Source of the DNA: an uncultured Actinomycetes bacterium
GTDB taxonomy: Bacteria; Actinomycetota; Actinomycetes; S36-B12
DNA: 64,000 nucleotides
Direction of reading: 5' to 3'
Assembly (NCBI GenBank): GCA_963842725.1
Contig: CAWJHN010000004.1
Span: 254,098-318,097 of the forward strand
In this document: piece by piece, positions 1 to 60,608 of the stretch
How positions within the stretch are numbered: position 1 is the first letter of the stretch
Layout: the number at the start of each line of letters is the position of its first letter
Translations under genes and position numbers: made by a program
Notes under the pieces: model-generated
Database searches by the model: none
The model's input: the letters and a program-made list of their open reading frames with translations, nothing else
What the model was told of the DNA's origin: nothing

Positions 1-239
1 GCGAGGTAGCGCGGGCGTGACTGGGCGAGTGAGGCGTCCAGCACGTCCGCGGCGAGGTCGAGGTTCGCGATGACATCGCCCGGCAGGTCGGGCAGCGGCT
101 CACGGAGCATGGCGAGCAGGCTCTCCGACGGAACCGTCTCGACGTCGCGGGCGGCGTCGAAGCCCTGCCAGGCACGGGCCACCAGCGCGGCGGCATGCTC
201 CAGGGCTGGTGCGCGCTGGTCGCCGAGGGTGAGCCTCAT
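1..239 (-). CDS. PLP-dependent (group II) amino-acid decarboxylase, N-terminal part; runs off the window
   Basis: Not in the ORF track. ATG at 239 overlaps the reductase stop (ATGA). Reads MRLTLGDQRAPALEHAAALVARAWQGFDAAR...LREPLPDLPGD...VLDASLAQSRPRYLA; the PLP..P and PRY(L/F)A pattern resembles the group II decarboxylase N-terminus. The catalytic Lys is outside the window. Confidence 0.6.
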   Translation of the reverse strand, partial: MRLTLGDQRAPALEHAAALVARAWQGFDAARDVETVPSESLLAMLREPLPDLPGDVIANLDLAADVLDASLAQSRPRYL

Positions 240-1414
240 GCTCGTGACATTAGCTGCTTGCGGTAGGGAGCGAGGTCCGCGGTCCGATCGACGCCCACGA
301 CGCCGACGAGGCCCGAGTCGTCCGTGTACTCGACGATGCAAGGTCCGTCGATGTCGCCGTCGGCGAGACGGACCCGGTCGGCGATTCCCGGCATGCCGAA
401 CGACTGCAGCTTGTGGTGGTACTGGTCGGACCAGAAGGAGGGCATCGCCGAGAACGGAGAGCGGTCGGGCTCGCGTCCGTCGAGGATCGCGGCGAGCGTG
501 CGACCGGCTCGACGCCCCGTCTCGGTGGGCATGTTCCAGTGCTCGATTCGGCGCGGCGGACCGCCGAAGATCGCGTTCGGATGACGGGCGATGTCGCCGA
601 CGGCCACGACGGGTGCCATCGGCGTGGCCACCTGCATGGCGTCATCAACGAGGAGCCCGTCCGAGAGGTCGAGGTCATTGCCCTCGAGCCACTCGGTGTT
701 GGTCACGGACCCCACCGCCTCGATGACGATCGAGGCCGGCAGCTCGGTTCCGTCGCTGAGCGCCACGGCCTGCACGCGCTCGCCGCCCTCGAAGCGATCG
801 ATCGTGTGGCCGAGATGGAAGTGGACGCCGTGCCGCTCATGACGCCGCCGCATCGCGGCGCCGAGCTCGCGGCCGAGCGGCCGGATCATCGGCTCCTCGT
901 CGATGGCCACGATCGCGACACTGCTGCCGAGCATGCGAGCCGTCGCGGCGACCTCGCACCCGATGAACCCGGCGCCCATGATGATCACGTGCGAGCCGGG
1001 GGTCAGGCTCGCCCGCACGGCGTGCGCGTCGGTCGCCGTGCGCAGGACGTGGCGGCCGACCTCGGGTCCGGGGATGGGGAGGCGCCGCGGCCGGATGCCC
1101 GACGCGACCACGAGTCCGTCGAAGGGCAGGACGTGACCATCGGCCAGCGTGACGGTGCGTGCCGCGAGATCGCAGGAGCGGGCGGGCGACCCCAGGCGCC
1201 AGGTGACGTCCTCGACGGTCGCCTTGCGCCGGAACTCCAGTTCGGGCACGTCGATGCCGCCGGACAGCGCCTCCTTCGACAGGGGCGGTCGGTTGTACGG
1301 CAGGTGCTCCTCGTCGCCGACGACCGTGATCGGACCCGGGTACCCGGACGCCCGAAGGGACTCCGCGGTCCGCAGTCCGCCGAGTCCCGCACCGACGATG
1401 ACGACGCCGCTCAT
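236..1414 (-). CDS. NAD(P)H-dependent ferredoxin reductase (FAD, putidaredoxin-reductase-like)
   Basis: GAGLGG and GAGFIG dinucleotide motifs, PYNRPPLSK, FWSDQY; adjacent to a ferredoxin. Confidence 0.92.
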   Translation of the reverse strand: MSGVVIVGAGLGGLRTAESLRASGYPGPITVVGDEEHLPYNRPPLSKEALSGGIDVPELEFRRKATVEDVTWRLGSPARSCDLAARTVTLADGHVLPFDGLVVASGIRPRRLPIPGPEVGRHVLRTATDAHAVRASLTPGSHVIIMGAGFIGCEVAATARMLGSSVAIVAIDEEPMIRPLGRELGAAMRRRHERHGVHFHLGHTIDRFEGGERVQAVALSDGTELPASIVIEAVGSVTNTEWLEGNDLDLSDGLLVDDAMQVATPMAPVVAVGDIARHPNAIFGGPPRRIEHWNMPTETGRRAGRTLAAILDGREPDRSPFSAMPSFWSDQYHHKLQSFGMPGIADRVRLADGDIDGPCIVEYTDDSGLVGVVGVDRTADLAPYRKQLMSRA

Positions 1415-1423
1415 GCCGGGCTC

Positions 1424-1612
1424 CTACTCGACCGTGATGGCCTGCATCGGGCACACGTCGGCTGCGCTCTCGATGTCGGCGCGGCGACTCTCGTCGGCCT
1501 CGGCCACGTACTCGAGCTTGCCGTCGTCGTCCAGCCGGAAGATGTCGTCGGCCTCGAAGCAGCACTGGCCGTAGTGCTGGCACTTCTCCATGTCGACGTG
1601 GACCTTGACCAT
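1424..1612 (-). CDS. 3Fe-4S-type ferredoxin (P450 partner), 62 aa
   Basis: MVKVHVDMEKCQHYGQCC...DVCPMQAITVE; CxxYxxC...CP motif; start chosen at ATG 1612. Confidence 0.92.
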   Translation of the reverse strand: MVKVHVDMEKCQHYGQCCFEADDIFRLDDDGKLEYVAEADESRRADIESAADVCPMQAITVE

Positions 1613-1614
1613 GC

Positions 1615-2490
1615 CTACTTCTCCTCGATCGTTGATGGGTACAGATCCTTGGATGGGGTCCGGATGCCGCGGAACTCCCAGTCGCCGCCCTGGGCGGTGG
1701 AGATGACCTCCTCGCTCTCCGTCGGCTGGGCGCCGACGTCGGAGCGGATGGGGGTCGGGCCCTCCACGATCGTGTTCGACAGCGTGCCGAGGCCCTCGAC
1801 CTGGACCTCCACGACGTCGCCGGGGTAGACGGTGCGCGAGTTGGCCGGAGTGCCGGAGAACAGCAGGTCTCCCGGCACCAGCGTGATCGTCCGGGCGATG
1901 TCGGCGACGAGGTAGTGCATGTCCCACTCCATCTCGTCCGTGGTGCCGTCCTGCTTCACGACGCCGTTGACGAGCGTGCGGATCTGCTTGCCGCGGAAGT
2001 CCCAGTCGGTGACGAGGCCCGGACCGACCGGCGCGAGGGTGTCGGCGCCCTTGACGCGGAGCATCGACCCCGCGTCGGTGTCGCGGAAGTCGTGCAGTCC
2101 GTAGTCGTTGCCGACGGAGTAGCCGGCGATGTGGTCGGCCGCCTCGTCCGGTGAGATGTTCCGGCAGGTGCGACCGATGACGATGACGATCTCGCCCTCG
2201 TAGTTGAGCCACTTGCAGCGCTGGGGTCGCACGACGGCGCCCTTGTGCGAGTTGAGCGCGGTGATGGGCTTGTGGAAGTACGTGGGCGCAGCGGGCAGCC
2301 TCGTCATGAATTCCTGCGTGCGGGAGTCGTAGTTCAGGTGCACCGCGATGATCTTCGTCGGCTCCGAGGGGGCGAGGTGGATCGCCTCGTCGACACCGAC
2401 GATGCGCCCGTCGGGTGCGACGAGTTCGTCGCCGTGCCGCTGGGTGAGGACGGGGGCACCCTCGAGGAGGATGCGACGGTACTCGGTCAT
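1615..2490 (-). CDS. Fumarylacetoacetate-hydrolase-family isomerase/decarboxylase (HpaG-like)
   Basis: KIIAVHLNY, YEGEI, GYSVGND, KGADT, PGDLLFSGTP motifs; ATG 2490 overlaps the upstream stop. Confidence 0.9.
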   Translation of the reverse strand: MTEYRRILLEGAPVLTQRHGDELVAPDGRIVGVDEAIHLAPSEPTKIIAVHLNYDSRTQEFMTRLPAAPTYFHKPITALNSHKGAVVRPQRCKWLNYEGEIVIVIGRTCRNISPDEAADHIAGYSVGNDYGLHDFRDTDAGSMLRVKGADTLAPVGPGLVTDWDFRGKQIRTLVNGVVKQDGTTDEMEWDMHYLVADIARTITLVPGDLLFSGTPANSRTVYPGDVVEVQVEGLGTLSNTIVEGPTPIRSDVGAQPTESEEVISTAQGGDWEFRGIRTPSKDLYPSTIEEK

Positions 2491-3383
2491 GCGCGCGGCT
2501 CCTTGCGTGTCCAGCCGGTCTCGGGTCGGTCGAACCATACGTGGACCTGGCTGGTGCCGATCGAGTTCTCGTAGTCCCCGAACTGGACGCCGGGCGCTGC
2601 GAACTCCGACTCGCCGAGGGCCGCTGCCATCATCAGGTAGTGCGCGAACCTGCCCTCCGGGCGCACGGTCAGGAAGTCGTCCATCGTGTCGAGGACGCGA
2701 TCGTGGCGACCCTCCGCGAACCACGCCAGGCGCTCCATGTCCATGTCGCGGGCGCGCTGGCTGAAGATGTGCGAGGGGTCGCTCGCCTCGTGACTGCGTA
2801 GCTCGCGAAGGGGATAGAACGTGTGCGACAGCGAGCCGGTGGCGATGATGATCACCTTCCGGTCGATGTCGCGGATCGCGGACCCGATCGCACGTCCGAC
2901 GCGCAGGAAGTCCTCCGAGTCCCCGGTCTGGCAGACGCTCATGGAGATCCACTGCTTGTCGAGCCCCTTGCCCAGGTAGCTCCACAGGTTGATCGAGGGG
3001 TAGTAGAGCGGCAGGTACGGATCATCGAGGGCGGTGATCCAGGTGCCGTTGTCCTCCGCCCGCGCGGCGATCGCCTCGGCCAGCCCGGGATCGCCCCGCC
3101 ACTCGTAGGGGATCCGGCACATTCCCCTGGGCAGTTCCTCCGCCGTGAACAGGCCCGCGCGCAGGTGGTGCGAGGTGACCACGAACTCGACGGTCGTGAA
3201 CCAGTGCGAGTCCAGGACGATGACCGTGTCGTAGTCGAGGGTCTCGAACTTCTCGGCCCTGATCCGCCTCAGCGCCGGGACCAGCGAGATCTCCCTGCCC
3301 TCGTTCAGTTCCAGCCGGGTCTCCAGCGGGAGCATGATCGTCGGCACGTGCGATAGGAGGCCCGCTCCTACGACTTCGCCCAT
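2487..3383 (-). CDS. LigB-family extradiol dioxygenase (homoprotocatechuate 2,3-dioxygenase-like)
   Basis: SHVPTI, DSHW and GSLSH metal-ligand motifs; C-terminal GTSQVHVWF; flanked by hpaE-like and hpaG-like genes. Confidence 0.88.
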   Translation of the reverse strand: MGEVVGAGLLSHVPTIMLPLETRLELNEGREISLVPALRRIRAEKFETLDYDTVIVLDSHWFTTVEFVVTSHHLRAGLFTAEELPRGMCRIPYEWRGDPGLAEAIAARAEDNGTWITALDDPYLPLYYPSINLWSYLGKGLDKQWISMSVCQTGDSEDFLRVGRAIGSAIRDIDRKVIIIATGSLSHTFYPLRELRSHEASDPSHIFSQRARDMDMERLAWFAEGRHDRVLDTMDDFLTVRPEGRFAHYLMMAAALGESEFAAPGVQFGDYENSIGTSQVHVWFDRPETGWTRKEPRA

Positions 3384-3387
3384 GGCA

Positions 3388-4854
3388 CTACTCCTTCGTC
3401 CAGCCGTTCGGTGCGTACACGGTGTTCTTGACGTCGGCATAGAAGTCGAAGGACCACACGCCGCCCTCCCGCCCGATCCCGGACCTCTTGGAGCCGCCGA
3501 ACGGGGCCGACAGGTCGCGCACGAAGAAGCAGTTGACCCAGATGGTGCCGGCGACAAGGTGCTTGGTGAAGGCCTCGGCGCGCTCCCGACTGCCGGTGAC
3601 GACACAGGCCGCCAGTCCGAAGTCGGTCCCGTTGGCCAGGGCCAGGCCCTCATCGTCGGTGCCGAAGGTCTGCATGGTCAGCACGGGTCCGAAGACCTCC
3701 TGCGTCAGGATCTCGCTGCCCGGCCTGGCGTCCCGGATCAGCGTGGGCGTGAAGTAGTGCGTGCCGAGTGCGGCATTGCGCTCGCCGCCGTACACGATGG
3801 TCGCCCCCTCGGCCCGGGCGCGCTCGATGAAGCCCTCCACCCGCTCGACGTGACGCAGGTGGATGCTCGGCCCGATCTGGGTCTCCTCCTCGCGCGGATC
3901 CCCCTGCCGGATGCGTGCCGCTCGCTCGACGAACCGGGCTGAGAACTCCTCGGCTATGCCGTCCTGGACCAGTAGTCGCGTCCCGGCCAGGCACACCTGG
4001 CCGGCGTTGTCGTACTGCTCGATGGCCAGGTCGACCGCGAGATCGAGGTCGGCGTCGTCGAGGATCACGGTCGGGCTCTTGCCGCCGAGCTCGAAGGAGC
4101 AGGGGATCAGGTTGTCGGCCGCCGCATGGGCGATGACCTTGGCGGTCGGCACCGACCCGGTGAAGCAGATCCGCGACACGTCGGCGTTCGCGGTGAGGGC
4201 GGCGCCGGCCTCGGTGCCGAATCCCTGGACCACGTTGAAGACGCCGGCCGGCAACCCGGCCTCGTGTGCGAGGTCCGCGAAGTACGACGCCGTCAGCGGA
4301 GCCCACTCCGGCGGCTTCAGCACCACCGTGTCCCCCGAGGCCAGGGCCGGGCCGATCCGCCAGGTCGCCAGCATCAAGGGGGCGTTCCAGGGGGTGATGA
4401 TGACGGCGACCCCGGACGGATCCCAGGACACGTGGTTGGTGTGCCCACGCGTCTCGAAGTCGGGATGGGACAGGCGGTTAGCCGCGTAGTCGGCGAAAAA
4501 GCGGATGTTCATGGCCACTCGGGGCATGACACCGCGCCGGTGCGAGCGAAGCAGCGAGCCGTTGTCGGCGGTCTCGAGCTGCGAGAGCGCCTCGAGGCTG
4601 CCCTCGACGGCGTCGGCAACGCGGTAGAGGATCTCGGCCCGGTCGGTCGCGCTCATCGCGGCCCACGCAGGGAAGGCGGCCCGCGCTGCCGCGACCGCGG
4701 CGTCCGCCTCCGCCTGGCCGCCGCGATGGACCTGGGCGATCTCGGCGCCGTCGATCGGACTGATGCTGGCGAAGGTCGTCGGGGACGAGACTCGCTCGCC
4801 GCCGATCCAGTGCCGGGTGTCCACGGGGACACCGGCGACCTCGACGATCGACAT
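3388..4854 (-). CDS. Aldehyde dehydrogenase (hydroxymuconate-semialdehyde dehydrogenase, HpaE-like)
   Basis: ITPWNAPLML, FTGS, ELGGKSP, AGQVCLAG, EVFGPV, VNCFFVRDLSAPFGGSKRSGIGREGG. Confidence 0.9.
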   Translation of the reverse strand: MSIVEVAGVPVDTRHWIGGERVSSPTTFASISPIDGAEIAQVHRGGQAEADAAVAAARAAFPAWAAMSATDRAEILYRVADAVEGSLEALSQLETADNGSLLRSHRRGVMPRVAMNIRFFADYAANRLSHPDFETRGHTNHVSWDPSGVAVIITPWNAPLMLATWRIGPALASGDTVVLKPPEWAPLTASYFADLAHEAGLPAGVFNVVQGFGTEAGAALTANADVSRICFTGSVPTAKVIAHAAADNLIPCSFELGGKSPTVILDDADLDLAVDLAIEQYDNAGQVCLAGTRLLVQDGIAEEFSARFVERAARIRQGDPREEETQIGPSIHLRHVERVEGFIERARAEGATIVYGGERNAALGTHYFTPTLIRDARPGSEILTQEVFGPVLTMQTFGTDDEGLALANGTDFGLAACVVTGSRERAEAFTKHLVAGTIWVNCFFVRDLSAPFGGSKRSGIGREGGVWSFDFYADVKNTVYAPNGWTKE

Positions 4855-4951
4855 GCGATCCCTTCCCGTCCGGTATACGTCGGCGGCACAATGGGCGAGG
4901 TGCTGCCCACTGTGCCGTGTGGTGTGCGGATTGCGAACCAGAGCCTGCAGT

Positions 4952-4969
4952 TCGTTCGGACCCTAATAG
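4952..4969. promoter_or_regulatory. Palindromic operator copy (TCGTTCGGACCCTAATAG)
   Basis: Matches consensus TCGTTnGGnnCCnAACGA with 3 mismatches; lies between the divergent dehydrogenase and amidotransferase genes. Confidence 0.55.
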
Positions 4970-5018
4970 ATAATGTGCGCCACGTCGACCCCCGCGTCGA
5001 ACCGATTCAGGAGGAGAA

Positions 5019-5714
5019 GTGCCCCGACCCCGTATCGCCGTCCTCGGCCGGTTCACCGAATCGGCCAGCGCGCTCCGGTACCGGGGGCTCGTCTCGTCGC
5101 GCGCCCTGCTCGAGGTCGTGTGGGCCGCCGGCGGCGACCCGGTCACGCTGCTCCCCGGGGCGGATCCGGATGCGCTGGACTGGTCGACCCGCCTGTCCGG
5201 GTTCGGCGGCGTGCTGATGGCAGGAGGCGGCGACGTGGATCCGGCGCGCTACGGCGGCGACCCTGACCACGACACGGTCTATGACGTGGATGCCGTCCAG
5301 GACGAGGCGGACTTCTCCCTGGCTCGCCACTGCCTCGAGCACGCGGTCCCGACCCTTGCCGTCTGCCGAGGGCTGCACGTCGTGAACGTGGTCCGAGGCG
5401 GGACCCTCGTGATCGACATGCCCGAGAACCACCGGCACCTGGTTCAGCAGGTGCCGCTCGACCGGGGTGCCGAGCCCCTCGGCATCGGATTGGAGCCGAT
5501 CGAGATCTCCTGCTACCACCATCAGGCCGTCGACCGGGTCGGAGCGGGCCTGACCGTGGTGGCCCGGGCCGAGGACGGGACGGTCGAGGCGGTCGTCGTG
5601 GACGCGCCCGCCTGGACGGTCGGCGTCCAATGGCACCCGGAGGACACCTACGCCGTCGACCCCCGGCAGGTCGACCTGGTGCGGACGCTCGTCGCGCAGG
5701 CCGCTCGCGCCTGA
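5019..5714 (+). CDS. Gamma-glutamyl-gamma-aminobutyrate hydrolase family (PuuD-like, class I GATase)
   Basis: GGGDVDPARY, AVCRG nucleophile elbow, YHHQAV, QWHPE; RBS AGGAGGAG upstream of the GTG. Confidence 0.9.
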   Translation: MPRPRIAVLGRFTESASALRYRGLVSSRALLEVVWAAGGDPVTLLPGADPDALDWSTRLSGFGGVLMAGGGDVDPARYGGDPDHDTVYDVDAVQDEADFSLARHCLEHAVPTLAVCRGLHVVNVVRGGTLVIDMPENHRHLVQQVPLDRGAEPLGIGLEPIEISCYHHQAVDRVGAGLTVVARAEDGTVEAVVVDAPAWTVGVQWHPEDTYAVDPRQVDLVRTLVAQAARA

Positions 5715-5739
5715 CCGGCCATGACGCGCGCGCCATTCG

Positions 5740-6240
5740 TCAGCGGCGCTCGGAGGCCGTGATGCACATGAGCCGGAGGGCCTCGGCCACGGTGGCCCGG
5801 TCCGCCTTGGGGATGCCCGACACGGCGACCTGCTCCTGCGCGTTGAACTTCGGGAAGAGCCTCTTCATGAGTCTTCGGCCCGCGGGGGTGAGGCTGACCA
5901 GCACCAGTCGGCCGTCGTCCGGGCTGCGCTCGCGGATGAGCAGGTCGCGACCCTCGAGCGTCTTGAGCACGCCGGAGAGCGTTGCCTTCGAGAAGCCACC
6001 CTCCTCCGCGATCACGCGCGTCTCGGCCTGCTCCCATATCCAGGTGACCCACAGGACGACGAACGCGGTCCAGGTGAGGTCGTGCGGCTGCAGGACGGTT
6101 CCCTCGAGGTGGTTGCGCACGGCGTTGGCTGCGCGGAAGAGATTCGAGGCGACCGCCATCGCCTCGAAGTCCAGGTCCATGCCCGAAAGCCGGCTCTCCA
6201 CAGCGCGCTCGGTCTCCGCGAGGGTGTACGGGCCGGCCAT
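5740..6240 (-). CDS. MarR-family transcriptional regulator
   Basis: KATLSGVLKTLEGRDLLIRERSPDDGRLVLVSLTPAG wHTH signature; AAGGAG RBS before ATG 6240. Confidence 0.9.
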   Translation of the reverse strand: MAGPYTLAETERAVESRLSGMDLDFEAMAVASNLFRAANAVRNHLEGTVLQPHDLTWTAFVVLWVTWIWEQAETRVIAEEGGFSKATLSGVLKTLEGRDLLIRERSPDDGRLVLVSLTPAGRRLMKRLFPKFNAQEQVAVSGIPKADRATVAEALRLMCITASERR

Positions 6241-6330
6241 GAGGCTCCTTCGGTGAGGGTGTGCGGACAACCTACGCGAAAGTTCGTCAAAGGTGTTCAA
6301 ATCGCCGACGGGGCATTACAGTCTGCCGGA

Positions 6331-6348
6331 TAGTTCGGGCCCGAATGG
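6331..6348. promoter_or_regulatory. Palindromic operator copy (TAGTTCGGGCCCGAATGG)
   Basis: Consensus match, 8 nt downstream of a TACAGT -10-like hexamer (6317-6322) upstream of the P450. Confidence 0.6.
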
Positions 6349-6382
6349 TTGCGCGGCCCCATCGGACGACCCCGGAGGTTCC

Positions 6383-7628
6383 ATGACCACGACGACCGAC
6401 GTCACTCTCGCCGATCTCGGACCTGTTCGCCAACGGGGCACCCTGGGCGACGTTCGAGGACCTGAGAGCGAACTCCCCGGTCCACTGGAACACCGAGCCC
6501 GAGCCGAATGCGGGCTTCTGGTCCGTGACCCGCTACCACGACATCGTCGAGGTGCTGCGCAACACCACCACGTACTCGAGCCAGATCGGCGCGGTGAGCC
6601 TCGAGGAGCTGGACACGCGCCAGATGGAGATCCGCCGCTCCATGCTGGAGACGGACGGGACCCGCCACCGCGCGCTGCGCAAGATGCTCCAGCCCGAGTT
6701 CACGCCGCGGGCCATCGCCGGCTACGAGACCTTCCTGCGCGGGCTGTCTGCGTCCACTCTCGACGCGGCCCTCGTCAAGGACGAGTTCGACTTCGTGGCG
6801 GACGTGGCCGCCGACTTCCCGATCCGCGTCTTGGCCCGGATGCTGGACGTGCCCGAGTCGGACATCCCGCAGCTGATCAAGTGGGGCAACCGGATGGTCG
6901 GCAACACCGACCCCGAGCACGCCGACGTGCTGGCCGACAGCCCCGAGAGCGAGGCCTTCCGCGACCTGCCGTTCCGGTCGCCGGCCGCGCTGGAGGTCTT
7001 CAAGTACGGCTACGAGCTCGCCTGGAACCGGCGCGGCGGTGACGGCAAGGACCTCGTCTCCATCGTCCTCAACACGCCCCCGTCGGACGGTATCCCGATC
7101 GACGCCCGTGACTTCCGCAACTACTTCCTGCTCCTCGTCATCGCGGGGAACGAGACGACGCGGCACACGATCACGCACACGATGAACAACCTCATGAAGA
7201 ACCCGCAGGCCATCGACCTGCTGCGTGAGAAGCCGGAACTCATCCCCTGGGCCGTCGAGGAGTTCCTGCGGTACGCCAGTCCGATCTACCACTTCCGACG
7301 CACGGCGACCCACGACGTGATGCTCAACAACAAGGAGATCAAGGCGGGCGACAAGGTCGTCGTCTGGTTCGGGTCGGGAAACATGGACACCGACGTCTTC
7401 GATGACCCCTACGCCTTCGACGTGACGCGCAAGCCGAACGAGCACATGACGTTCGGGCGCGGCGGACCGCACATGTGCCTGGGCAACGCCCTGGCCCGCC
7501 TGGAGATCCAGATCATGTTCGAGGAGCTCCTGGCGCGCGACGTCAATCTCGCGCCCAACGGCACGCCCGAGTTCCTGCGCTCGAACCTGGTGCACGGCTT
7601 CAAGCGGCTGCCCGTCAAGAAGGCCTGA
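6383..7628 (+). CDS. Cytochrome P450; apparent +1 frameshift near 6416-6420
   Basis: GGAGG RBS plus ATG 6383 gives MTTTTDVTLADL, then DLFANGAPWATFEDLRANSPVHW...GFWSVTRY continues in the +1 frame; AGNETT I-helix, EEFLR, FGRGGPHMCLG heme-Cys motif. Confidence 0.93.
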
Positions 7629-7656
7629 ACGCGGAGCCATCGCCCCGCGGCGTGAG

Positions 7657-8370
7657 TCAGGCGACGATGGGGAAGGCGATGCGGTCCAGGAAGGCGTCGA
7701 CGAGGGCGTGCGCCCGGCGGCCCGCGTCCTCCCCCTCTGCGAGCGTGTGCTGGTAGAGGATGTCGGGGTCCTGCCCGTCGGCGACGACCAGGTCGCGTCC
7801 GTCGAGCTCGAGCCAGCCCTGCAGCGTGGCTGCCGTGACCTCGGGATGGAACTGCACCGCGAGGTTGCGACGCAGCACGAAGGCCTGCGACGCCCGCGAG
7901 TTGCGCGCGATCTCGCGCGCCTCGGGCGGGACCTCCCAGCGGTCGTAGTGGAAGTGGAACCACGGTCCGCGACCGACGATGTCAGGGGCCTGCGACCAGA
8001 TCGCGGTCCAGCCGATCTCCGGACGCGGTGCGCGCGCGACCGACCCGCCGTGGGCCCGTGCGAGCAGCTGCCCGCCGAAGCAGATCCCGAGCACCGGCAC
8101 GCCGAACTCGTCGGCTCGCCGCAGCCACTCGATCTCGGGCAGCAGCCAGGTGCCGATCTTCTGGTCGTCCCATGCCCCCCACGGCGCGCCCATGGGGACG
8201 ATCACGTCGAACTCGCGCGGATCCGGGAAGTCGAAGGGCTGGTTGGGCTGTCGGAAGTTCTCGGGCGCCACGACGATCCGCTCGACGACCTCGAATCCGC
8301 GATGCGCGAAGCGCTCGGCCACCGGCCCGGGCGGACTCACGTGATCGTGCTGGAGGAACAGTGCCCGCAC
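7657..8370 (-). CDS. Type 1 glutamine amidotransferase (GMP-synthase-like, stand-alone)
   Basis: PVLGICFGGQ nucleophile, PEIGW, AVQFHPE. Confidence 0.88.
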   Translation of the reverse strand: MRALFLQHDHVSPPGPVAERFAHRGFEVVERIVVAPENFRQPNQPFDFPDPREFDVIVPMGAPWGAWDDQKIGTWLLPEIEWLRRADEFGVPVLGICFGGQLLARAHGGSVARAPRPEIGWTAIWSQAPDIVGRGPWFHFHYDRWEVPPEAREIARNSRASQAFVLRRNLAVQFHPEVTAATLQGWLELDGRDLVVADGQDPDILYQHTLAEGEDAGRRAHALVDAFLDRIAFPIVA

Positions 8371-8430
8371 AGCGATTCCCTTCCGTCAAGGGGGCGACAG
8401 ATTGTCGGTTTGCGTCTACTATCCGCTAGA

Positions 8431-8448
8431 TCGTTGGGAGCCTAACGA
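8431..8448. promoter_or_regulatory. Palindromic operator, best copy (TCGTTGGGAGCCTAACGA)
   Basis: Full consensus match, 8 nt downstream of a TACTAT -10 hexamer (8417-8422) upstream of the GS-like gene. Confidence 0.7.
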
Positions 8449-8497
8449 CCCAGCCACGCGAACCTAGCCGTTTGACGCCCACAGCGAAAGGCCATCC

Positions 8498-9847
8498 ATG
8501 CACACCGATCTCGCCGACATCCGTCGTGAGCTGGACACCCTCGGCATCGACGTCCTGCGGCTGGTCTGGTCGGACGTGCTGGGGATCGCCCGGTCAAAGG
8601 ACATCACGGTCTCGCAGCTGGAGCGCGCCGCCGGCCACGGCCCGACCTTCTGCCAGGCCACGTGGACGACGAACACCCGGGGCGATGTGCTCGACGGCCA
8701 CGGCAGCCTGCGTGACGGCCTGTCGGACATGGTGTCGCGGCTCGACCCGAGCACGATCCGCGCCATCCCGTGGGTACCGGGCGTGGCCTACGGGATCGCC
8801 GACATCGATGAGCCCGACGGCTCGCCGAACCCGATCTCGCCGCGCACGTTGCTGCGCCGGGTGATCGCCGAGTACAAGCTGCTGGGGCTCATTCCGATCG
8901 TCGGCCCCGAGCTGGAGTTCTACCTCGCCCACCGGCCGAACGGGTCGTGGGAGCGCATCATCAACAAGGTCGGCCGCGTCTACACGACGGGTTCGATGGT
9001 GGATCCGGACGGCACCTTCCTGCACCTGCTGCGCATGATGGACCGGCTGGCGATCGGTGCCTTCGCGGGAAACCACGAGTTCGCGCCGTCGCAGTACGAG
9101 ATCAACCTGTGGCACGGCGAGGCCCTGGACGCAGCGGATCGCACCTTCCTGCTCAAGGCCGGCATCAAGGACGTCTGCGCGAGCAGGGGCGTCATGGGCA
9201 CCTTCCTCGGCAAGCCCTGGAGCGACGAGGGCGGCAGCGGATTCCATCTGCACCTGTCGGTGACGGACATCGAGGGCGACATGATGATGGACGAGCCCGA
9301 CGGGTCCCCGTCGGTCATCTCCCAGCGCATGACCGCCGGCATCCTGGAGCATGCGGCGGCGCTTGTCGCCTTCTGCAATCCCACGGTCAACGCGTACAAG
9401 CGGCTCGGTCCGGACACGATGGCGCCGTACCGGGCTAACTGGGGCTACGACAACCGCACCACGTTCGTGCGGCTGCCACCGGAGCGAGGTCCCGGGGCGC
9501 GTATCGAGGTCCGGGTCGGGGACGGGGCCGCCAACCCCTACGTGGTCATCGCGGTGGTTCTCGCTGCGGCCCTCGACGGCCTGCGTCGACAGCTCGACTG
9601 CCCGCCCGCGTCCGAGGGCTGGTCGTACACCGACGAGTCGCGCCCGGCGCTGCCGATGTCCCTGGGAGCGGCACTGGATGCGCTCGCGGCCGACCGCTTC
9701 CTGACCGACATCATCGGCGAGCCGTTCGTCGCGGCCTTCGAGACGCTCAAGCGCGACGAGATCGCCCGCTACGAGGCAGCGGTCGACGATCCGGCCACGC
9801 GCGACACCACGCAGTGGGAGCTCGACGAGTACCTCGAGGACTTCTAG
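8498..9847 (+). CDS. Glutamine-synthetase-like gamma-glutamyl-amine ligase
   Basis: GPELEFY, HEFAPSQYEIN, GSGFHLHLS, NAYKRL, WGYDNRT, RIEVR..D.AANPY; the flap reads PDTMAP instead of the GYEAP of ammonia-assimilating GSI. Confidence 0.9.
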   Translation: MHTDLADIRRELDTLGIDVLRLVWSDVLGIARSKDITVSQLERAAGHGPTFCQATWTTNTRGDVLDGHGSLRDGLSDMVSRLDPSTIRAIPWVPGVAYGIADIDEPDGSPNPISPRTLLRRVIAEYKLLGLIPIVGPELEFYLAHRPNGSWERIINKVGRVYTTGSMVDPDGTFLHLLRMMDRLAIGAFAGNHEFAPSQYEINLWHGEALDAADRTFLLKAGIKDVCASRGVMGTFLGKPWSDEGGSGFHLHLSVTDIEGDMMMDEPDGSPSVISQRMTAGILEHAAALVAFCNPTVNAYKRLGPDTMAPYRANWGYDNRTTFVRLPPERGPGARIEVRVGDGAANPYVVIAVVLAAALDGLRRQLDCPPASEGWSYTDESRPALPMSLGAALDALAADRFLTDIIGEPFVAAFETLKRDEIARYEAAVDDPATRDTTQWELDEYLEDF

Positions 9848-9848
9848 C

Positions 9849-9920
9849 GCCGACGCGACCCAGAAGGTCGCGTAATCGGTGGTTCCGCGGCTGTTTCGCG
9901 ACCTTCTGGGTCGCGTCGGC
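9849..9920. repeat. Perfect 24-bp inverted repeat with self-palindromic arms (REP-doublet-like or bidirectional terminator)
   Basis: gccgacgcgacccagaaggtcgcg (9849-9872) and its exact reverse complement (9897-9920), 24-nt spacer, between convergent genes. Confidence 0.85.
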
Positions 9921-9971
9921 GGCGTGGGGTGGGCGGCGGCGTGGGGTGGGCGGCGGCGTGGGGTGGGCGGC
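9921..9971 (+). repeat. G-rich tandem repeat, 3 x 17 bp (ggcgtggggtgggcggc)
   Basis: Three exact contiguous copies. Confidence 0.9.
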
Positions 9972-10006
9972 GGCGCGGAGCGGGCTCGTCAGACGGCGCG
10001 GGCAGG

Positions 10007-10816
10007 TCAGATGGCGCGGGACGCATCGGTGAGCAGCGAGCCCCCCGCGAAGGTCGTGCCCACCTCGACGTAGTACCCCGCGATGACCTCGTCCACGGGC
10101 AGGAGGCTGGCGGGCTCGTCCCATGGCGAGTCGAACAGGGACAGCTCGGCGTCGCCGACCCACGGTTGGCCGAGGTCGACGTCGACCCCGCCCATGGTCA
10201 CGACCTGGGACAGCGACATGCCCGCCCCGGGCGTCAGGGACGGCATGACCCGGTGGTGCACCATCTTGTGGGCGTTGACGAAGCCGTTGGTGTCACTGGG
10301 TTCTCGCAGGGTCACCTTCGCAGTGGCGAGGCGGTGGTCGTAGGCGGCGAGCGACGCCCCGAAGGTGCCGCCCTCCGCGATCCGCGGCGCCGCCGTGCCC
10401 CGGTTGTAGGCACGCGTGACGTACGCGCTGCCGAGCTTCTTCGGGTAGCCCTGGAACCAGCCCCGTCCGATCGCGAAGTCCGTGGTCACCCAGATCAGCA
10501 CGCATCGGCTGTAGGTGACGCCCTGGTACGTGCACCGGACGACGACGAACGCCTCGAGGTACTGCGATCGCGAGGGGTCGAGCAGCTCGGCCCCTCCGCT
10601 GCTGCATGACTGCCAGTCGGCCCAGATGAACGCGACGGCCCCGGGGTCCTGCGGCGCCAGGTCGAGTTCGGGCGGCAGCAGCGCGCGGACGTTCGCCGGG
10701 TCGGTGCGGTACTCGACCGTGAGCAGCGTGCCCGAGTAGTGCCACGGCATCTCCGGCACGAGTGCCGACGCTCCGGACGGCGTGAAGGGCGGTAGGAATC
10801 CGCGGAGTTCTGACAT
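10007..10816 (-). CDS. Acetoacetate-decarboxylase-like superfamily protein, MppR-like aldolase/dehydratase
   Basis: PWHYSG..L.VEYRTDP, FIWADWQSCS.GG.EL.DP.R.QY.E, RGWFQGYPKKLG (Schiff-base Lys); layout matches recalled MppR-type proteins. Confidence 0.85.
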   Translation of the reverse strand: MSELRGFLPPFTPSGASALVPEMPWHYSGTLLTVEYRTDPANVRALLPPELDLAPQDPGAVAFIWADWQSCSSGGAELLDPSRSQYLEAFVVVRCTYQGVTYSRCVLIWVTTDFAIGRGWFQGYPKKLGSAYVTRAYNRGTAAPRIAEGGTFGASLAAYDHRLATAKVTLREPSDTNGFVNAHKMVHHRVMPSLTPGAGMSLSQVVTMGGVDVDLGQPWVGDAELSLFDSPWDEPASLLPVDEVIAGYYVEVGTTFAGGSLLTDASRAI

Positions 10817-10845
10817 AGCGCCGAACCATAGCCCACGGCAATCGA

Positions 10846-10863
10846 TCGTTTGCGCCCGAATGT
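10846..10863. promoter_or_regulatory. Palindromic operator copy (TCGTTTGCGCCCGAATGT)
   Basis: Degenerate consensus match upstream of the MppR-like gene. Confidence 0.5.
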
Positions 10864-10895
10864 CAAGGAAGTTGACGGCAAATCGAGCCAATCGC

Positions 10896-10950
10896 TTGAC
10901 GCGCGCATCTCCATGCATCAGTCTCCTCCCTATCGTTCGGGTCCTTACGA
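10896..10950 (+). promoter_or_regulatory. SigA-type promoter (TTGACG-17-CAGTCT) followed by operator copy TCGTTCGGGTCCTTACGA (10933-10950)
   Basis: Canonical 17-nt spacing; the operator begins 8 nt after the -10 element, as at 6331 and 8431. Confidence 0.65.
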
Positions 10951-10989
10951 CTCTTGACGCTGCCCCCGCGACCGACTAGGAGAACCTTG

Positions 10990-12518
10990 ATGGCTGGCCT
11001 GCAACCCGCTCCGGAGGAGACACCGGACACCGCGCTCCATCACGGTCGCCTCGGAGTGCTCGGGATCGTCTTCTTCGTCGTCGCGGCTGCGGCCCCCCTG
11101 GTCGGGATGACCGGCGCGGTGCCCGTCGCGATCGTGGTGGGCAACGGGGCCGCTGCCCCGGGTGCCTACCTCGTGGTGGGCCTCGTCCTCCTGCTCTTCA
11201 GCGTCGGCTACGGCGCCATGGGCCGTCATGTCACGAATGCCGGCGCCTTCTTCGCGTACGTGGGCCGCGGCATGGGCATCGCTCCCGGCGTCGGGCTCGG
11301 CCTTCGTCTCCCTGGTCGCCTACCTCGCCATCCAGCTCGCGATCTTCGGCTTCTTCGGCGGGCTCATGGCCGGCCAGATGAATGCCCAGTTCGGCCTCGA
11401 CTGGCCGTGGTACGTCTGGACGCTGCTCTCCTGGGCACTCGTCCTCGTTCTGTCCCTGGCGAGCGTCGACATCGGCGCCAAGGTGCTCGGCGTGCTGATG
11501 GGCCTCGAACTCCTGTCGCTCCTGGTCGTGGGGCTCGCGGTGCTCTTCAGCGGTGGCGGGCCCGAGGGCTTCGACCTCGCTGCCTCGTTCGCCCCGAGCA
11601 ACATCTTCGTGGGCGGCTTCGCCGGATCGGCTGGCATCGCCCTCGCGTTCGCGTTCGCGTCCTACATCGGCTTCGAGGCCACCGCGATCTACGGCGAGGA
11701 GTCGAAGGAGCCGCACAAGACCGTGCCGCGCGCGACGTACGTCGCCGTCATCGTGATCACGGTCCTGTTCGCGCTGACCGCCTGGGCCATCGTCTCGGGA
11801 CTGGGGACGTCGGTCGTCGTCGACCGGGTCGTCGAGCTGACGACGATCGACGGAGTGCCGCTCGCGGACCCGGCGCAGGCACTCTTCGCGGTCGCGACGG
11901 AGTACGTGGGCTCCTGGCTGGCGACCGTCATGAGCTGGCTCGTGATCTCGAGCCTGTTCGCCGGCCTGCTCGCGTTCCAGAATTCGGCTGCGCGCTACTT
12001 CTTCGCCATGGGCCGGGCCGGCGTGCTCCCGGCGAAGCTCGACCACGTGAACAAGTCGGGTGCGCCCGTGTGGGCGTCGGTGACGACGTCGGTGGTCACC
12101 CTCCTGGTCATCGTCATCTTCATCGTCCAGGAGCTCGACCCCATCGTGAACATGTTCTTCTGGTTCAGCGGCATGACGGTCGTGGCGATCGTGTTCGTCG
12201 AGATGCTGGTGTGCGTCTCGGTGATCATCTTCTTCCGGCGCGAGCCGCTCGACCGGCGCCCGTGGAACACGATCATCGCTCCGGCGCTGTCGTTCGTCGC
12301 ACTGCTCATCGGCGAGTTCCTGCTCACGTCCCGGTTCGGCCTGCTCGCCGGCACCGTCGCCGAGGGCGTCGATCCCGACCACCGCCGCGTGGGGCCTGAA
12401 CACCACCGGGTGGATCCTCGTGACGACGCCGTTCGTCATCTTCATCCTCGGCGTCCTCATCGGCTCGGTCCGGCAGAACAAGGAGAACGTCGACGCGGTC
12501 GCCGACCTCGTGACCTGA
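10990..12518 (+). CDS. APC-family amino acid/amine permease; two apparent +1 frameshifts (about 11293-11295 and 12374-12376)
   Basis: LGVLGIVFFVVAAAAPL, NAGAFFAYV, SYIGFEATAIYGEE..P..TVPRATY, RYFFAMGRAGVLP; removing one G and one C restores a single ORF ending ...AVADLVT*. Confidence 0.88.
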
Positions 12519-50298: not shown

Positions 50299-51078
50299 CT
50301 ACAGGGGCGTGACGTACGCGCCGGCGATGCCGCCGTCGACCAGGAAGTTCGACGCCGTGATGAAGGACGAGTCGTCGCTGGCCAGGAAGGCAACGGCGGC
50401 CGCCAGCTCGTCGGCCTCGCCGAATCGACCCATCGGGATGTGCACCAGCCGTCGGGCGGCGCGCTCCGGGTCGCTCGCGAACAGCTCGATGAGCAGCGGC
50501 GTGTTGACCGGTCCGGGGGAGAGGGCGTTCACCCGGACGCCCGACCGGGCGAACTGCACGCCGAGCTCGCGGGTCATCGCGAGCACGCCGCCCTTCGACG
50601 CCGTGTAGGAGATCTGGGATGTGGCCGCGGCCATGGTTGCCACGAAGGACGCCGTGTTGATGATCGAGCCCTTGCCCTGCTCGAGCATGATCGGCAGGAC
50701 CGCCTTGCAGCACAGATAGACCGACGTCAGGTTGACCTCCTGGACCCGGCGCCAGGCCTCGAGGCTCGTCTCGAGGATCGAGTCGTCGTCCGGCGGCGAG
50801 ATGCCGGCGTTGTTGAAGGCGATGTCAACGCTGCCGTAGGTGTCCTTGGCGGCGGCGAACATGGCCGCCACGTCCTCGGGGCTCGTGACGTCGGTGCGCA
50901 CGAACAGCCCGTCGACCTCGTCGGCTGCTGCCTGGCCGGAAGCGGGGTCGAGGTCGCCGATCACGACGATGGCGCCCTCGTCGGCGAACCGCCGGACCGT
51001 GGCCAGGCCGATGCCGCTGGCTCCACCGGTCACCACGGCCACGCGGCCCTCGAGCCGGCGGCACTTGCTGTCACTCAT
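50299..51078 (-). CDS. Short-chain dehydrogenase/reductase
   Basis: TGGASGIG, NNAG, YTASK, PGPVNTP. Confidence 0.92.
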   Translation of the reverse strand: MSDSKCRRLEGRVAVVTGGASGIGLATVRRFADEGAIVVIGDLDPASGQAAADEVDGLFVRTDVTSPEDVAAMFAAAKDTYGSVDIAFNNAGISPPDDDSILETSLEAWRRVQEVNLTSVYLCCKAVLPIMLEQGKGSIINTASFVATMAAATSQISYTASKGGVLAMTRELGVQFARSGVRVNALSPGPVNTPLLIELFASDPERAARRLVHIPMGRFGEADELAAAVAFLASDDSSFITASNFLVDGGIAGAYVTPL

Positions 51079-51140
51079 CTGATGCCTCTCATGTATCTGC
51101 GACGGTGGTCGTGCGTAGTTCCTGGCGGGGGTGCCGGGGG

Positions 51141-52499
51141 TCAGTCGTCGGTGCTGATGAAGACGTTCTTGGTCTCGGTGAAGGCGTCGAGGGCATCGGG
51201 ACCGAGCTCCCGGCCGAGGCCGGAACGCTTGAAGCCGCCGAAGGGCGTCCAGTACCGGACCGACGAATGCGAGTTCACCGACAGGTTGCCGGTCTCGATG
51301 CCGCGCGAGACCCGGATGGCCTTGCCGAGGTCGCGCGTCCAGATCGAGCCGGACAGCCCGTACTCCGAGTCGTTGGCGAGGCGGATCGCGTCGGCCTCGT
51401 CGTCGAAGGGGGTGACGACGACCACGGGACCGAAGATCTCCTCCTGGAAGGTGCGATCGGTCGATGACACCGGGGCGAGGACCGTGGGCGGGAACCAGTA
51501 GCCGGGTCCGTCGGGGCAGTGCCCCCGGAAGGCGACCGGCGCATCGTCGGGCACGAAGCCCGCGACCGTCTCGAGCTGCCCTCGGCTGATGAGGGGGCCC
51601 ATCTCCGAAGTCTCCAGGCGGGGGTCCTCGACGCGGACGCCCTTGACCGCCGTCTCCAGCAGTTCCATGAAGCGGTCATACGCCCGCCGCTCGACGAGGA
51701 TCCGCGATCGGGCGCAGCAGTCCTGGCCGGCGTTGTCGAACACGCCGTACGGAGCGGCCGCGGCCGCCTTCTCGAGGTTCGAGTCGGCGAAGATGACATT
51801 GGCGCTCTTGCCGCCGAGCTCGAGGGTCACGGCCTTCACCTGCCGGGCCGCCCCGGCCATGATGCCCTCGCCGACGGCGGTGCTGCCGGTGAAGACGACC
51901 TTGCGCACGAGCGGGTGGTCCACGAACCGCTGGCCAACGACCGAGCCCTTGCCGGGCAGGACGGTGAACACGTCTGGCGGGATGCCGGCCTCGAGGGCCA
52001 GCTCGCCGAGCCGGATCGCGGTCAGCGGCGTGACCTCTGCGGGCTTGAGCACCACGGTGCAGCCGGCCGCGAGCGCCGGGGCGAATCCCCAGCCGGCGAT
52101 CGGCATCGGGAAGTTCCACGGGACGATGACGCCGACGACGCCGACCGGCTCCTTGAAGGTGATGTCGATGCCGCCGGCCACCGGGATCTGCCGGCCGAAG
52201 AGCCGCTCGGGCGACCCGGAGTAGTAGGCCAGGACGTTGGCGACGTTGTTCGCCTCCCAGCGTCCGTTGCCGATCGTGTGACCGGAGTTAGCGACCTCGA
52301 GCTGGGCCAGCTCCTCGACGTGATCGCGAACGAGGTCCGAGAAGGCCCTCAGCAGGTTCGCCCGGTCCCCGGGCGCGACGTCACGCCAGGCTGGGAACGC
52401 GGCGTGCGCCCTCGCGATCGCCTCGTCGGTCTCCTCGGCGGAGGTGGACGGGACGGTGGCGATGACCTGCTCGGTCGCCGGATTGATGACGTCGTGCAT
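51141..52499 (-). CDS. Aldehyde dehydrogenase (AldC/PuuC-like)
   Basis: IVPWNFP, FTGST, ELGGKS, AGQDCCAR, EEIFGP. Confidence 0.92.
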   Translation of the reverse strand: MHDVINPATEQVIATVPSTSAEETDEAIARAHAAFPAWRDVAPGDRANLLRAFSDLVRDHVEELAQLEVANSGHTIGNGRWEANNVANVLAYYSGSPERLFGRQIPVAGGIDITFKEPVGVVGVIVPWNFPMPIAGWGFAPALAAGCTVVLKPAEVTPLTAIRLGELALEAGIPPDVFTVLPGKGSVVGQRFVDHPLVRKVVFTGSTAVGEGIMAGAARQVKAVTLELGGKSANVIFADSNLEKAAAAAPYGVFDNAGQDCCARSRILVERRAYDRFMELLETAVKGVRVEDPRLETSEMGPLISRGQLETVAGFVPDDAPVAFRGHCPDGPGYWFPPTVLAPVSSTDRTFQEEIFGPVVVVTPFDDEADAIRLANDSEYGLSGSIWTRDLGKAIRVSRGIETGNLSVNSHSSVRYWTPFGGFKRSGLGRELGPDALDAFTETKNVFISTDD

Positions 52500-52565
52500 G
52501 GCTGCTCCTGAGCGGTGGGCGCGATGTCCCTGCTGGTGGTGAGAGGTGGCGGGATGCCGGGACCA

Positions 52566-53930: not shown

Positions 53931-53988
53931 CTGGTCTCCTCTGCGTGGGCTATCGGGCATTCAACCCCACAACCGTCCGCGCCGTGGT

Positions 53989-54006
53989 CCGTTCGGGGCC
54001 AAACGG
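53989..54006. promoter_or_regulatory. Palindrome CCGTTCGGGGCCAAACGG resembling the cluster-1 operator
   Basis: Same CGTTnGGnnCCnAACG core, in the glnA4/permease divergent region. Confidence 0.45.
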
Positions 54007-54211
54007 ATGTGTTGAACGTTTCGGGCGAGTGACCGTGAGCCGGGCGCCTCGGGCGCGAATGTCCATAACATATCGACCACGTAACTTTCAAGAGTCCGCG
54101 TGTCGGACATCACAAAAGCCCGTACACGAGGACACTCGCGCTATTAGTGTCCGCCTGTCGGGGGACTCGACATCTCGGGTCGAACATCGACCGCAAACCT
54201 GGAGGGCAGCG

Positions 54212-60076: not shown

Positions 60077-60083
60077 GCAGGCG

Positions 60084-60608
60084 TCAGCCCCTGCCGGGGT
60101 GGACGCTGCCGCAGGCCGTGCACGTGCGGGCCGCCTCGTCGGAGTAGAACGCCTCGAACACCGGCGGCAGGTCTACGACGATGTCGGAGACCTGGAGCTC
60201 CACGTCGTGGATGAGGTGATTGCACTCCCGGCAGTACCACTGGAAGTGCTCGAGGACGCCCGGCTCGCGAGGGCGCTCGAACACCAGGCCGATCGACCCG
60301 GCCTCCGGGCGCTGCGGGGAGTGCGGCACATTGCGCGGCAGGACCCACATCTGCCCGGGACCGATCGTGACCGTCTGCCGGCCCTCGGGCGTCTGGAGGT
60401 CGACGTGCATGGTGCCCTTCAGCTGGTAGAAGACCTCCTCGTAGGGCTCCTGGTGGTAGTCCGTGCGCTGGTTGGGCCCGCCCACGACCATGACGATGAA
60501 GTCCTCGCAGCCCGGGAAGACCTCCTTGTTGCCGACCGGCGGCTTGAGACCCGGGCCGTGCTCGGCGAGCCAGGCCTCGAAGTCGAGGGTGCGTGTCAGG
60601 TCACTCAT
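60084..60608 (-). CDS. nbaC: 3-hydroxyanthranilate 3,4-dioxygenase
   Basis: LKPPVGNK, GGPNQRTDYH, EEVFYQ, PHSPQR, CREC...CTAC rubredoxin-like site. Confidence 0.94.
   Translation of the reverse strand: MSDLTRTLDFEAWLAEHGPGLKPPVGNKEVFPGCEDFIVMVVGGPNQRTDYHQEPYEEVFYQLKGTMHVDLQTPEGRQTVTIGPGQMWVLPRNVPHSPQRPEAGSIGLVFERPREPGVLEHFQWYCRECNHLIHDVELQVSDIVVDLPPVFEAFYSDEAARTCTACGSVHPGRG

Follow-up and report, generated by a model that had tools for sequence, protein, structure and literature searches.

How might a bacterium open the ring of an aromatic amine that still carries its nitrogen? The question is raised by a gene cluster at positions 1-12518 of a 64,000-nucleotide stretch of DNA with a G+C content of about 70% (the window, G000:C4:254098-318097; G labels stand for genomes, G000 being the source genome, which is 84% complete, and L labels for the loci that we fetched). 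Genes for amine handling lie here among those for a three-component cytochrome P450 and for ring cleavage of the homoprotocatechuate (hpa) type. We found that this freshwater-type actinobacterium carries a genuine, widely conserved cluster, which, to judge from its genes, likely encodes a real, undescribed and probably co-regulated pathway. In the reading that we favor, with a probability of about 0.55, the cluster would degrade 2-arylethylamines of the tyramine/dopamine type with their nitrogen masked by glutamate throughout ring fission, from gamma-glutamyl-tyramine through gamma-glutamyl-dopamine to pyruvate and gamma-glutamyl-4-aminobutanal, and on to 4-aminobutyrate (GABA). An original prediction, made from this DNA alone, had already proposed the masked nitrogen. 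We infer the reactions and the substrate, and of the explanations considered this one best fits the comparative data, namely the ligase kept in clusters without the P450, the PuuC/PuuD-like and GabT-like genes, the MppR-like aldolase and the adjoining hpa operons.

All gene families named in that prediction were recovered at 1-12518 by open reading frame listing and family scans, with catalytic motifs intact across the cluster proteins; an ADC/MppR-family gene (10007-10816, minus strand) and a MarR-family regulator (5740-6240, minus) had gone unlisted. As it had stated, genes for amine oxidases, transaminases, HpaBC and Rieske oxygenases are absent from 1-12518. A minus-strand run comprises an HpaE-like semialdehyde dehydrogenase (3388-4854), a LigB-type extradiol dioxygenase (2487-3383), an HpaG-like FAH-family protein predicted to be a tautomerase/decarboxylase (1615-2490), a CxxYxxCC-type ferredoxin (1424-1612; Fer4_15, 45 bits), a ferredoxin reductase (236-1414; Pyr_redox_2 and Reductase_C) and the 5' part of a group II pyridoxal phosphate (PLP) decarboxylase (1-239; about 470 residues when whole, continuing to G000:C4:252924). 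Because the gaps in this run are 9 bases at most and there are two ATGA overlaps, one of them between the decarboxylase and the stop of the reductase, the decarboxylase belongs to the ring-cleavage operon. The remaining genes encode a peptidase C26 resembling the gamma-glutamyl hydrolase PuuD (5019-5714, plus; Pfam C26, 134 bits; Cys-His-Glu motifs), the P450 (6383-7628, plus; 414 residues in relatives), a class I glutamine amidotransferase-like (GATase) hydrolase (7657-8370, minus), a glutamine synthetase (GS)-like ligase (8498-9847, plus) and an APC-family permease (10990-12518, plus). The three-component P450 had been called complete; its genes are all there, but the P450 is frameshifted in the G000 assembly. 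Three single-base insertions relative to related genomes affect the P450 (6419) and the permease (near 11292 and 12377). Near-identical short-read contigs (four runs from one study) read through 6419 and 11292 without the added base and have one gap across 12377, so these insertions are likely assembly errors.

The proposed route would start with import of the amine by the permease, or with its formation from tyrosine or L-3,4-dihydroxyphenylalanine (L-DOPA) by the decarboxylase, and the ligase would then join it to glutamate as the gamma-glutamyl amide. Supported by its ferredoxin and reductase, the P450 would convert gamma-glutamyl-tyramine into the catechol gamma-glutamyl-dopamine, a step that catechol substrates would skip. 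The dioxygenase, the HpaE-like dehydrogenase and the FAH protein would apply the chemistry of the homoprotocatechuate pathway (PMC12718150) to give 2-oxo-7-(gamma-glutamylamino)hept-3-enoate, and the MppR-like enzyme would hydrate this 2-oxo-3-enoate and split it by retro-aldol cleavage into pyruvate and gamma-glutamyl-4-aminobutanal. An aldehyde dehydrogenase, PuuC-like in Streptomyces, would produce gamma-glutamyl-GABA, from which the C26 hydrolase would release GABA and recycle glutamate. The PuuC step missing here could be filled by the HpaE-like enzyme, because Acinetobacter baumannii HpaE also oxidizes the terminal semialdehyde (PMC12718150), or by a dehydrogenase at 51141-52499, because its operon (a second GS-like ligase, an aldehyde dehydrogenase and a short-chain dehydrogenase/reductase; 50299-53930, minus) bears the palindrome described below. 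Masking would keep the amine from cyclizing with an aldehyde to a pyrroline at two points. Free 4-aminobutanal closes such a ring. When the amine is free, the ring-fission aldehyde forms a cyclic imine, as described for amine-bearing extradiol products (PMC12311729).

The ligase missed the curated glutamine synthetase score (TIGR00653, GlnA; 228 bits against a cut-off of 429). Its metal/glutamate core is intact, Glu138 and His250 being present in 65/65 orthologs, all of which also keep the tyrosine equivalent to GlnA Tyr179. The ammonium-site aspartate (GlnA Asp50) is replaced by Cys in 63 of the 65 and by Ser in the other two, and the flap glutamate (GlnA Glu327) by Leu, Met or Thr in every one; the window's ligase has Cys52 and Met308. 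With its core kept and its ammonium site opened, the protein has the sequence hallmarks of GS-like gamma-glutamyl-amide ligases, and the same kind of ammonium-site residue loss has been described for GlnA4 and PauA7 (PMC6529630).

The ring-cleavage enzymes all fell short of the hpa equivalog cut-offs, even though the hpa families were their best matches: 126 bits against 316 for LigB (TIGR02298), 502 against 638 for the HpaE-like enzyme (TIGR02299) and 185 against 276 for the HpaG-like protein (TIGR02303). LigB keeps the 2-His-1-Glu iron site and the second-sphere Tyr and His of LigB-type 3,4-dihydroxyphenylacetate dioxygenases; alignments of dioxygenases to PDB 8IQ8 and 1F1X were weak or partial. 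Family scans of the genes in 1-12518 detected no HpaBC, HpaF, HpaH or HpaI. A canonical hpa operon adjoins the cluster in three genomes, G616, G685 and G745 (the last by homology only), and its copies in G616 and G685 pass the cut-offs (HpaD, 381 and 384 bits; HpaE, 666 bits). Together, the low scores and the neighboring true hpa operons speak for a substrate that is not homoprotocatechuate. Ten other cluster genomes were tested for HpaB, which was found in none of them. G000 has an isolated HpaB-family monooxygenase (G000:C4:1803992-1805536) 1.5 Mb from the cluster, beside a PucR-type regulator; it has no operator (best palindrome score, -2) and is absent from the six close relatives tested. 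Copper amine oxidase was found neither in G000 nor in five of five relatives, VanA-like proteins had no match in G000, and no two-subunit Rieske ring dioxygenase was present in 1-12518; PF01593 gave one strong and four weak matches in G000.

Instead of HpaH and HpaI, which the ADC-family protein is predicted to replace as a 2-oxo-3-enoate hydratase/aldolase, the cluster has a relative of MppR (Pfam ADC, 197 bits; TIGR04460, 198 bits; PDB 4JM3 at E 2e-49; also 4ZBO, 6EEJ and 5UPB). The protein in 4ZBO is Sbi00515, reported to have hydratase/retro-aldol activity. The catalytic lysine motif (the Lys of GYPKKLG) is kept as in MppR-type aldolases; a catabolic role on a glutamylated 2-oxo-3-enoate would be particular to this cluster. 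For MppR itself, aldolase activity with pyruvate is cited in PMC7820114.

The P450 has an ancestral CYP125 and CYP125/124 enzymes as its best solved relatives in a PDB search. The family is very large (5162 matches in a homolog search), and a homolog at 83% identity is labeled Candidatus Nanopelagicales. The core P450 is not a CYP255 member, sharing about 26% identity with accessory CYP255-like proteins of related clusters and forming a separate clade. A single-sequence AlphaFold model of a homolog had a mean predicted local distance difference test score of 38.8. At two loci (L028, L029), one ligase is flanked by two core-clade P450s that are about 47% identical and could act in successive hydroxylations. 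An accessory P450 at L038:5532-6728 and at ten more Streptomyces loci, often together with PurU and an F420-dependent LLM gene, is nearly identical to PDB 8Q5J, with XplA as its next match; the cluster may be the natural context of this enzyme.

The original prediction had named co-occurrence of the modules in other genomes as its own check, and here it was borne out. Our samples comprised 61 relative genomes, 400 genomes across the phylum and 331 Streptomycetaceae; they overlap in part, and kin among them are not independent. LigB was detected in 37 of the 400 phylum-sample genomes and the P450 in 36 of these 37 (one, G458, being flagged unpublished), on the same contig in 26 and within 20 kb in 24. 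Among the relatives, 35 of 61, G000 included, had a P450 match at E 1e-80. From the other 34 we fetched 20-kb loci of 20 genomes, with long contigs as the main criterion, and found the ligase in 19, GATase in 19, the dehydrogenase in 18, MarR in 18, ADC in 17, LigB in 16, FAH in 15, C26 in 15 and the decarboxylase in 11, all lower bounds because loci were cut. Of 588 LigB loci, the 80 best, almost all of them from Streptomyces, held LigB (80), the dehydrogenase (80), FAH (79), ADC (78), the ligase (75), the P450 (73), PuuC-like and C26 genes (72 each, the pair in 72/80), GATase (12) and the decarboxylase (4), with no match to HpaB or to three aminotransferase queries. Two further families, with 15 P450-matching genomes, exchange LigB for a VOC-fold dioxygenase, which accompanied the ligase, P450, FAH and ADC genes in 12/12 fetched loci; the three VOC-type enzymes tested scored 95-102 bits against an HpaD cut-off of 321. 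In family f26, a GabT-like aminotransferase lies directly behind LigB in the same operon in 8/8 fetched genomes, with a score below cut-off. As a control, five remoter P450 matches (37-42% identity, L076-L080) had no ligase nearby. Among others, Streptomyces canus, Embleya and Novosphingobium replicons carry the cluster; of the P450-less loci named below, L160 comes from Streptomyces sp. NPDC051636 and L104 from S. lunaelactis MM109. We consider the odds about even for a broader proposal, in which tyramine, dopamine and L-DOPA share a widespread and so far undescribed route that carries the tag through extradiol fission and joins hpa to Puu; a new P450 family would act as gamma-glutamyl-tyramine 3-hydroxylase, and two unrelated dioxygenase folds would each have adapted independently to a glutamylated catecholamine.

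Where the nitrogen leaves is addressed by clusters that have lost the P450. LigB was present in 51 of the 331 Streptomycetaceae genomes, 43 of which had the P450; three P450 matches without LigB were all partial. The other eight LigB-positive genomes yielded no P450 ortholog after a full re-search, yet seven of them keep the ligase, the eighth (G708) having a different, HpaB-containing cluster. At this last locus (L225), a 51% LigB homolog lies with HpaB, asparagine-synthase-like, TauD and PLP genes in a biosynthetic-looking arrangement. In G462 only 74 codons of the P450 remain and the reductase has an internal deletion, the other genes being whole. P450-less clusters occupy several places in the LigB and dehydrogenase tree, with modest support in the Streptomyces core. 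Five P450-less loci (L104, L112, L160, L221 and L222) have a decarboxylase in the cluster, whose best solved relatives are 5HSI and 7CWX, presumably tyrosine decarboxylases. The same decarboxylase, at that identity, occurred in 1 of 73 P450-bearing Streptomyces loci, and by coordinates in the Streptomycetaceae genomes a decarboxylase lay beside LigB in 2/8 P450-less and 0/43 P450-bearing genomes. The window's own decarboxylase (Pfam Pyridoxal_deC, 197 bits) may be an aromatic amino-acid decarboxylase; it keeps the PLP lysine, the histidine and the loop tyrosine, and 4OBU, 7XIN ('DOPA decarboxylase') and the DesA-type 5O5C score alike as its best PDB matches. Cluster decarboxylases come from three lineages with 28-37% mutual identity, which points to 2-arylethylamines made from amino acids. 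Since the ligase is retained upon P450 loss and several P450-less clusters have a decarboxylase, the tag would be needed after the P450 step; the simplest reading is that the P450 makes the catechol from a phenol, is unneeded when L-DOPA supplies dopamine, and leaves the tag to serve later steps.

The cluster is likely MarR-controlled through a 20-bp palindrome, which a matrix search detected in 57/59 divergent intergenic regions of relatives, both misses belonging to a different module. Window regions were left out of the matrix training, although the seed was chosen after viewing them. G000 has nine sites above 13 bits, five of them in the cluster's four divergent promoters: between the dehydrogenase operon and the C26 gene (4951-4970, 20.8 bits), between the P450 and the MarR gene, whose product is the likely repressor (6330-6349, 25.1 bits), between GATase and the ligase (8430-8449, 24.2 bits), and near the starts of ADC (10845-10864, 18.2 bits) and the permease (10932-10951, 24.8 bits). 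With 20 column-shuffled matrices, the median was one site on C4 against eight observed and two shuffles gave more, so that position rather than count carries weight. Of 17 distant loci scanned, 12 also have the palindrome; they belong to Streptomycetaceae and three further families, and the VOC/GntR, HpaB and proteobacterial loci scanned lack it. The distant site before the second ligase operon (53988-54007, 21.1 bits) is present in 3/29 scored loci, G000 included, and is not generally conserved. A site at C3:488430 was rejected as a regulon member for lying inside a coding region; another at C4:650247 (28 bits) precedes a multiheme cytochrome-like gene and added no member.

The design is a mosaic of known systems, from each of which it departs on a tested feature. 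The precedents given in the original prediction left out the Ipu pathway for isopropylamine of Pseudomonas sp. KIE171 and Paenarthrobacter aurescens TC1 (pTC1; PMC6776027, PMC1713258), a known combination of glutamylation, P450 and hydrolase. Ipu likewise has a GS-like ligase, a P450 with ferredoxin and reductase, two hydrolase types, a permease and aldehyde dehydrogenases, the ligase, P450 trio, hydrolase and permease lying in one cluster in both systems; identities to the window's proteins are 33% (ligase), 36% (C26), 30% (GATase) and 31% (P450). It differs in having no ring-cleavage genes in the 19 kb fetched, an alkylamine substrate and a tag removed straight after the P450 step, and the TC1 P450 is not orthologous, being remote in the tree and long-branched. 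As in Puu and in GlnA2/3/4 of Streptomyces coelicolor, glutamylation would precede the aldehyde, the hydrolase is PuuD-like and the Streptomyces versions have a PuuC-like dehydrogenase; however, the window's cluster lacks PuuB oxidase and PuuC, its aminoaldehyde would come from ring fission, and the equivalog cut-offs are missed by the ligase (229 against 650 bits, NF045547, PuuA) and by C26 (63 against 266, NF008471, PuuD). The aniline and 1-naphthylamine systems (AtdA1-5, NpaA1-5) share a GS-like ligase and a dispensable amide-hydrolyzing GATase upstream of catechol cleavage (PMC11335346), but their amine is ring-bound and is removed before fission by a Rieske dioxygenase, an enzyme that the window's cluster lacks. 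From hpa the cluster departs through its scores and by having the MppR-like protein in place of the missing Hpa enzymes.

Several findings weigh against the reading with nitrogen masked throughout. Formation of the catechol by the P450 belongs to this best-fitting account, as originally predicted, yet the CYP125/124 relatives are alkyl oxidases, for which ring hydroxylation is atypical. A same-clade P450, 58-60% identical to the window's, serves another module in L235 and L240 (alcohol dehydrogenase, GabT-like, acyl-CoA dehydrogenase and CoA-transferase genes, no dioxygenase), an indication of side-chain oxidation by some family members that also weakens the argument from GabT. The lone LigB-positive phylum-sample genome without the P450, G192, pairs related LigB, ADC and FAH genes with an HpaB-like gene and has no ligase. 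The PuuC-like gene occurs in only 7/30 phylum-sample genomes, in 0/20 close relatives and not in the window's cluster; the PuuC-like (553-582 against 850 in relatives) and GabT-like labels are sub-cut-off best matches. The second hydrolase, GATase, has no clear role and is dispensable in Streptomyces clusters; it may keep the amide from accumulating, a role that has been proposed for AtdA2/NpaA2 (PMC11335346). As for the P450-less clusters, the L112 genome carries the P450 in a second cluster, L104 is a plasmid and the absence there covers the plasmid only, the 20 kb of L221 hold neither PuuC nor C26 genes, L221 and L222 have distant P450s nearby, and the fetched cluster DNA of five P450-less genomes (G673, G685, G745, G773 and G781) contains no decarboxylase; three of these five have an old-yellow-enzyme-like gene after FAH. 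Ruegeria TM1040 has a GATase-P450-ligase set with an omega-aminotransferase and a PuuC-like gene, next to paa genes and without LigB within 12 kb. A cluster specific for phenethylamine-to-phenylacetate conversion, considered from these paa neighbors, was dropped; the nearest P450 in the tree (Novosphingobium, L101) comes with a full LigB set.

The substrate range also appears wide. Related clusters contain CYP255-like P450s (9/20 loci), VanAB-like Rieske pairs (7/20), F420-dependent LLM proteins, deacylases and PurU/FolD, so that methoxylated or N-acylated amines probably feed in. We therefore considered masked ring fission of another substrate, with another P450 reaction such as O-demethylation of gamma-glutamyl-3-methoxytyramine, or with an amine akin to benzylamine, octopamine or phenethylamine. 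A CYP125/124-like enzyme would be suited to oxidizing methyl groups, and the accessory genes and paired core-clade P450s (two each in G050 and G054) suggest a broad feeder range; we nevertheless regard this as unlikely, because the formaldehyde-handling PurU tracks the accessory enzymes rather than the core P450 (6/7 PurU loci carry CYP255, VanAB or the accessory Streptomyces P450) and the three decarboxylase lineages point to amino-acid-derived 2-arylethylamines. Alternatively, the tag might be only a handle for the P450: gamma-glutamyl-tyramine would be hydroxylated, the tag removed, and the free dopamine deaminated by a transaminase or oxidase, 3,4-dihydroxyphenylacetate (DOPAC) then passing through ordinary hpa steps. 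This matches the order of the Ipu pathway (PMC6776027), and the TC1 cluster also has both hydrolase types; the Ruegeria set and an omega-aminotransferase in G054 are in line with it. Seven of eight P450-less genomes keeping the ligase, 80/80 Streptomyces loci without an aminotransferase match and the true hpa operons adjoining the cluster in three genomes make it quite unlikely in general, although it may hold for the roseobacter variant only.

A further scheme has the P450 remove the nitrogen itself, by hydroxylating the carbon next to the amide to release glutamine and an arylacetaldehyde, which the PuuC-like enzyme would oxidize to DOPAC for hpa-type cleavage. Alkyl C-H oxidation would fit the P450 relatives, the Streptomyces cluster contains every gene needed, phenylacetaldehyde dehydrogenase models give PuuC-like proteins 450-480 bits, the Ruegeria copy adjoins a paa operon, and an oxygenase takes off the nitrogen in the aniline and naphthylamine systems (PMC11335346). 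The ligase would however be useless once the P450 was lost, yet several lineages have P450-less clusters that are otherwise intact and hold both ligase and decarboxylase, and tyramine would require HpaB, missing from all ten genomes tested; we judge the scheme distinctly improbable. That the amine and ring-cleavage genes are separate functions sharing an island is barely credible. Related LigB genes without a ligase (G192, G708) and split clusters (G339, G430) would agree with it, but all four divergent promoters share a single palindrome, also present in Streptomyces and three further families, and gene order is shuffled while the set is kept, even when the dioxygenase fold is swapped.

In the literature searched, mainly open and at abstract level, we found no description of this cluster, of glutamylation-dependent tyramine/dopamine catabolism or of a tag carried through ring fission. 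To our knowledge, known bacterial tyramine/dopamine routes remove the nitrogen first; work on Pseudomonas putida U is listed in PMC10606097. Ring opening with a protected nitrogen, if true, would be a new pathway logic. A very large orphan P450 family, and MppR-like proteins in catabolic clusters, would gain a function, and a regioselective tyramine-to-dopamine biocatalyst would be on offer. The genes occur in about 12% of the phylum sample (37/400 with LigB plus at least 12 with the VOC dioxygenase) and in 15% of Streptomycetaceae (51/331), and there are cultured carriers with and without the P450.

Other features were noted in and around these clusters. Another glutamylation module, which comprises its own ligase and P450 with Zn alcohol dehydrogenase, GATase, CoA-transferase and acyl-CoA dehydrogenase, lacks the palindrome and is likely for an alkylamine; it is present in L019, L022, L027, L033, L034, L106, L235 and L240, and a related set sits on a Mesorhizobium loti plasmid. 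At L104:17228-18697, the palindrome stands before an M14 carboxypeptidase gene; other cluster versions contain M20 and HDAC-family deacylases. Just left of the window, a 515-residue protein without Pfam or NCBIfam match and a thiamine diphosphate-dependent enzyme follow the decarboxylase codirectionally (L001:15599-18809), a pair present in 7/20 relative loci and in none of the distant clusters. Between the converging ligase and ADC genes (window 9849-9975), a long inverted repeat and, after it, a 17-base G-rich unit in three copies probably form a terminator region. Finally, window positions 59075-63673 encode a tryptophan-breakdown set comprising kynureninase, 3-hydroxyanthranilate dioxygenase and an amidohydrolase-like gene.

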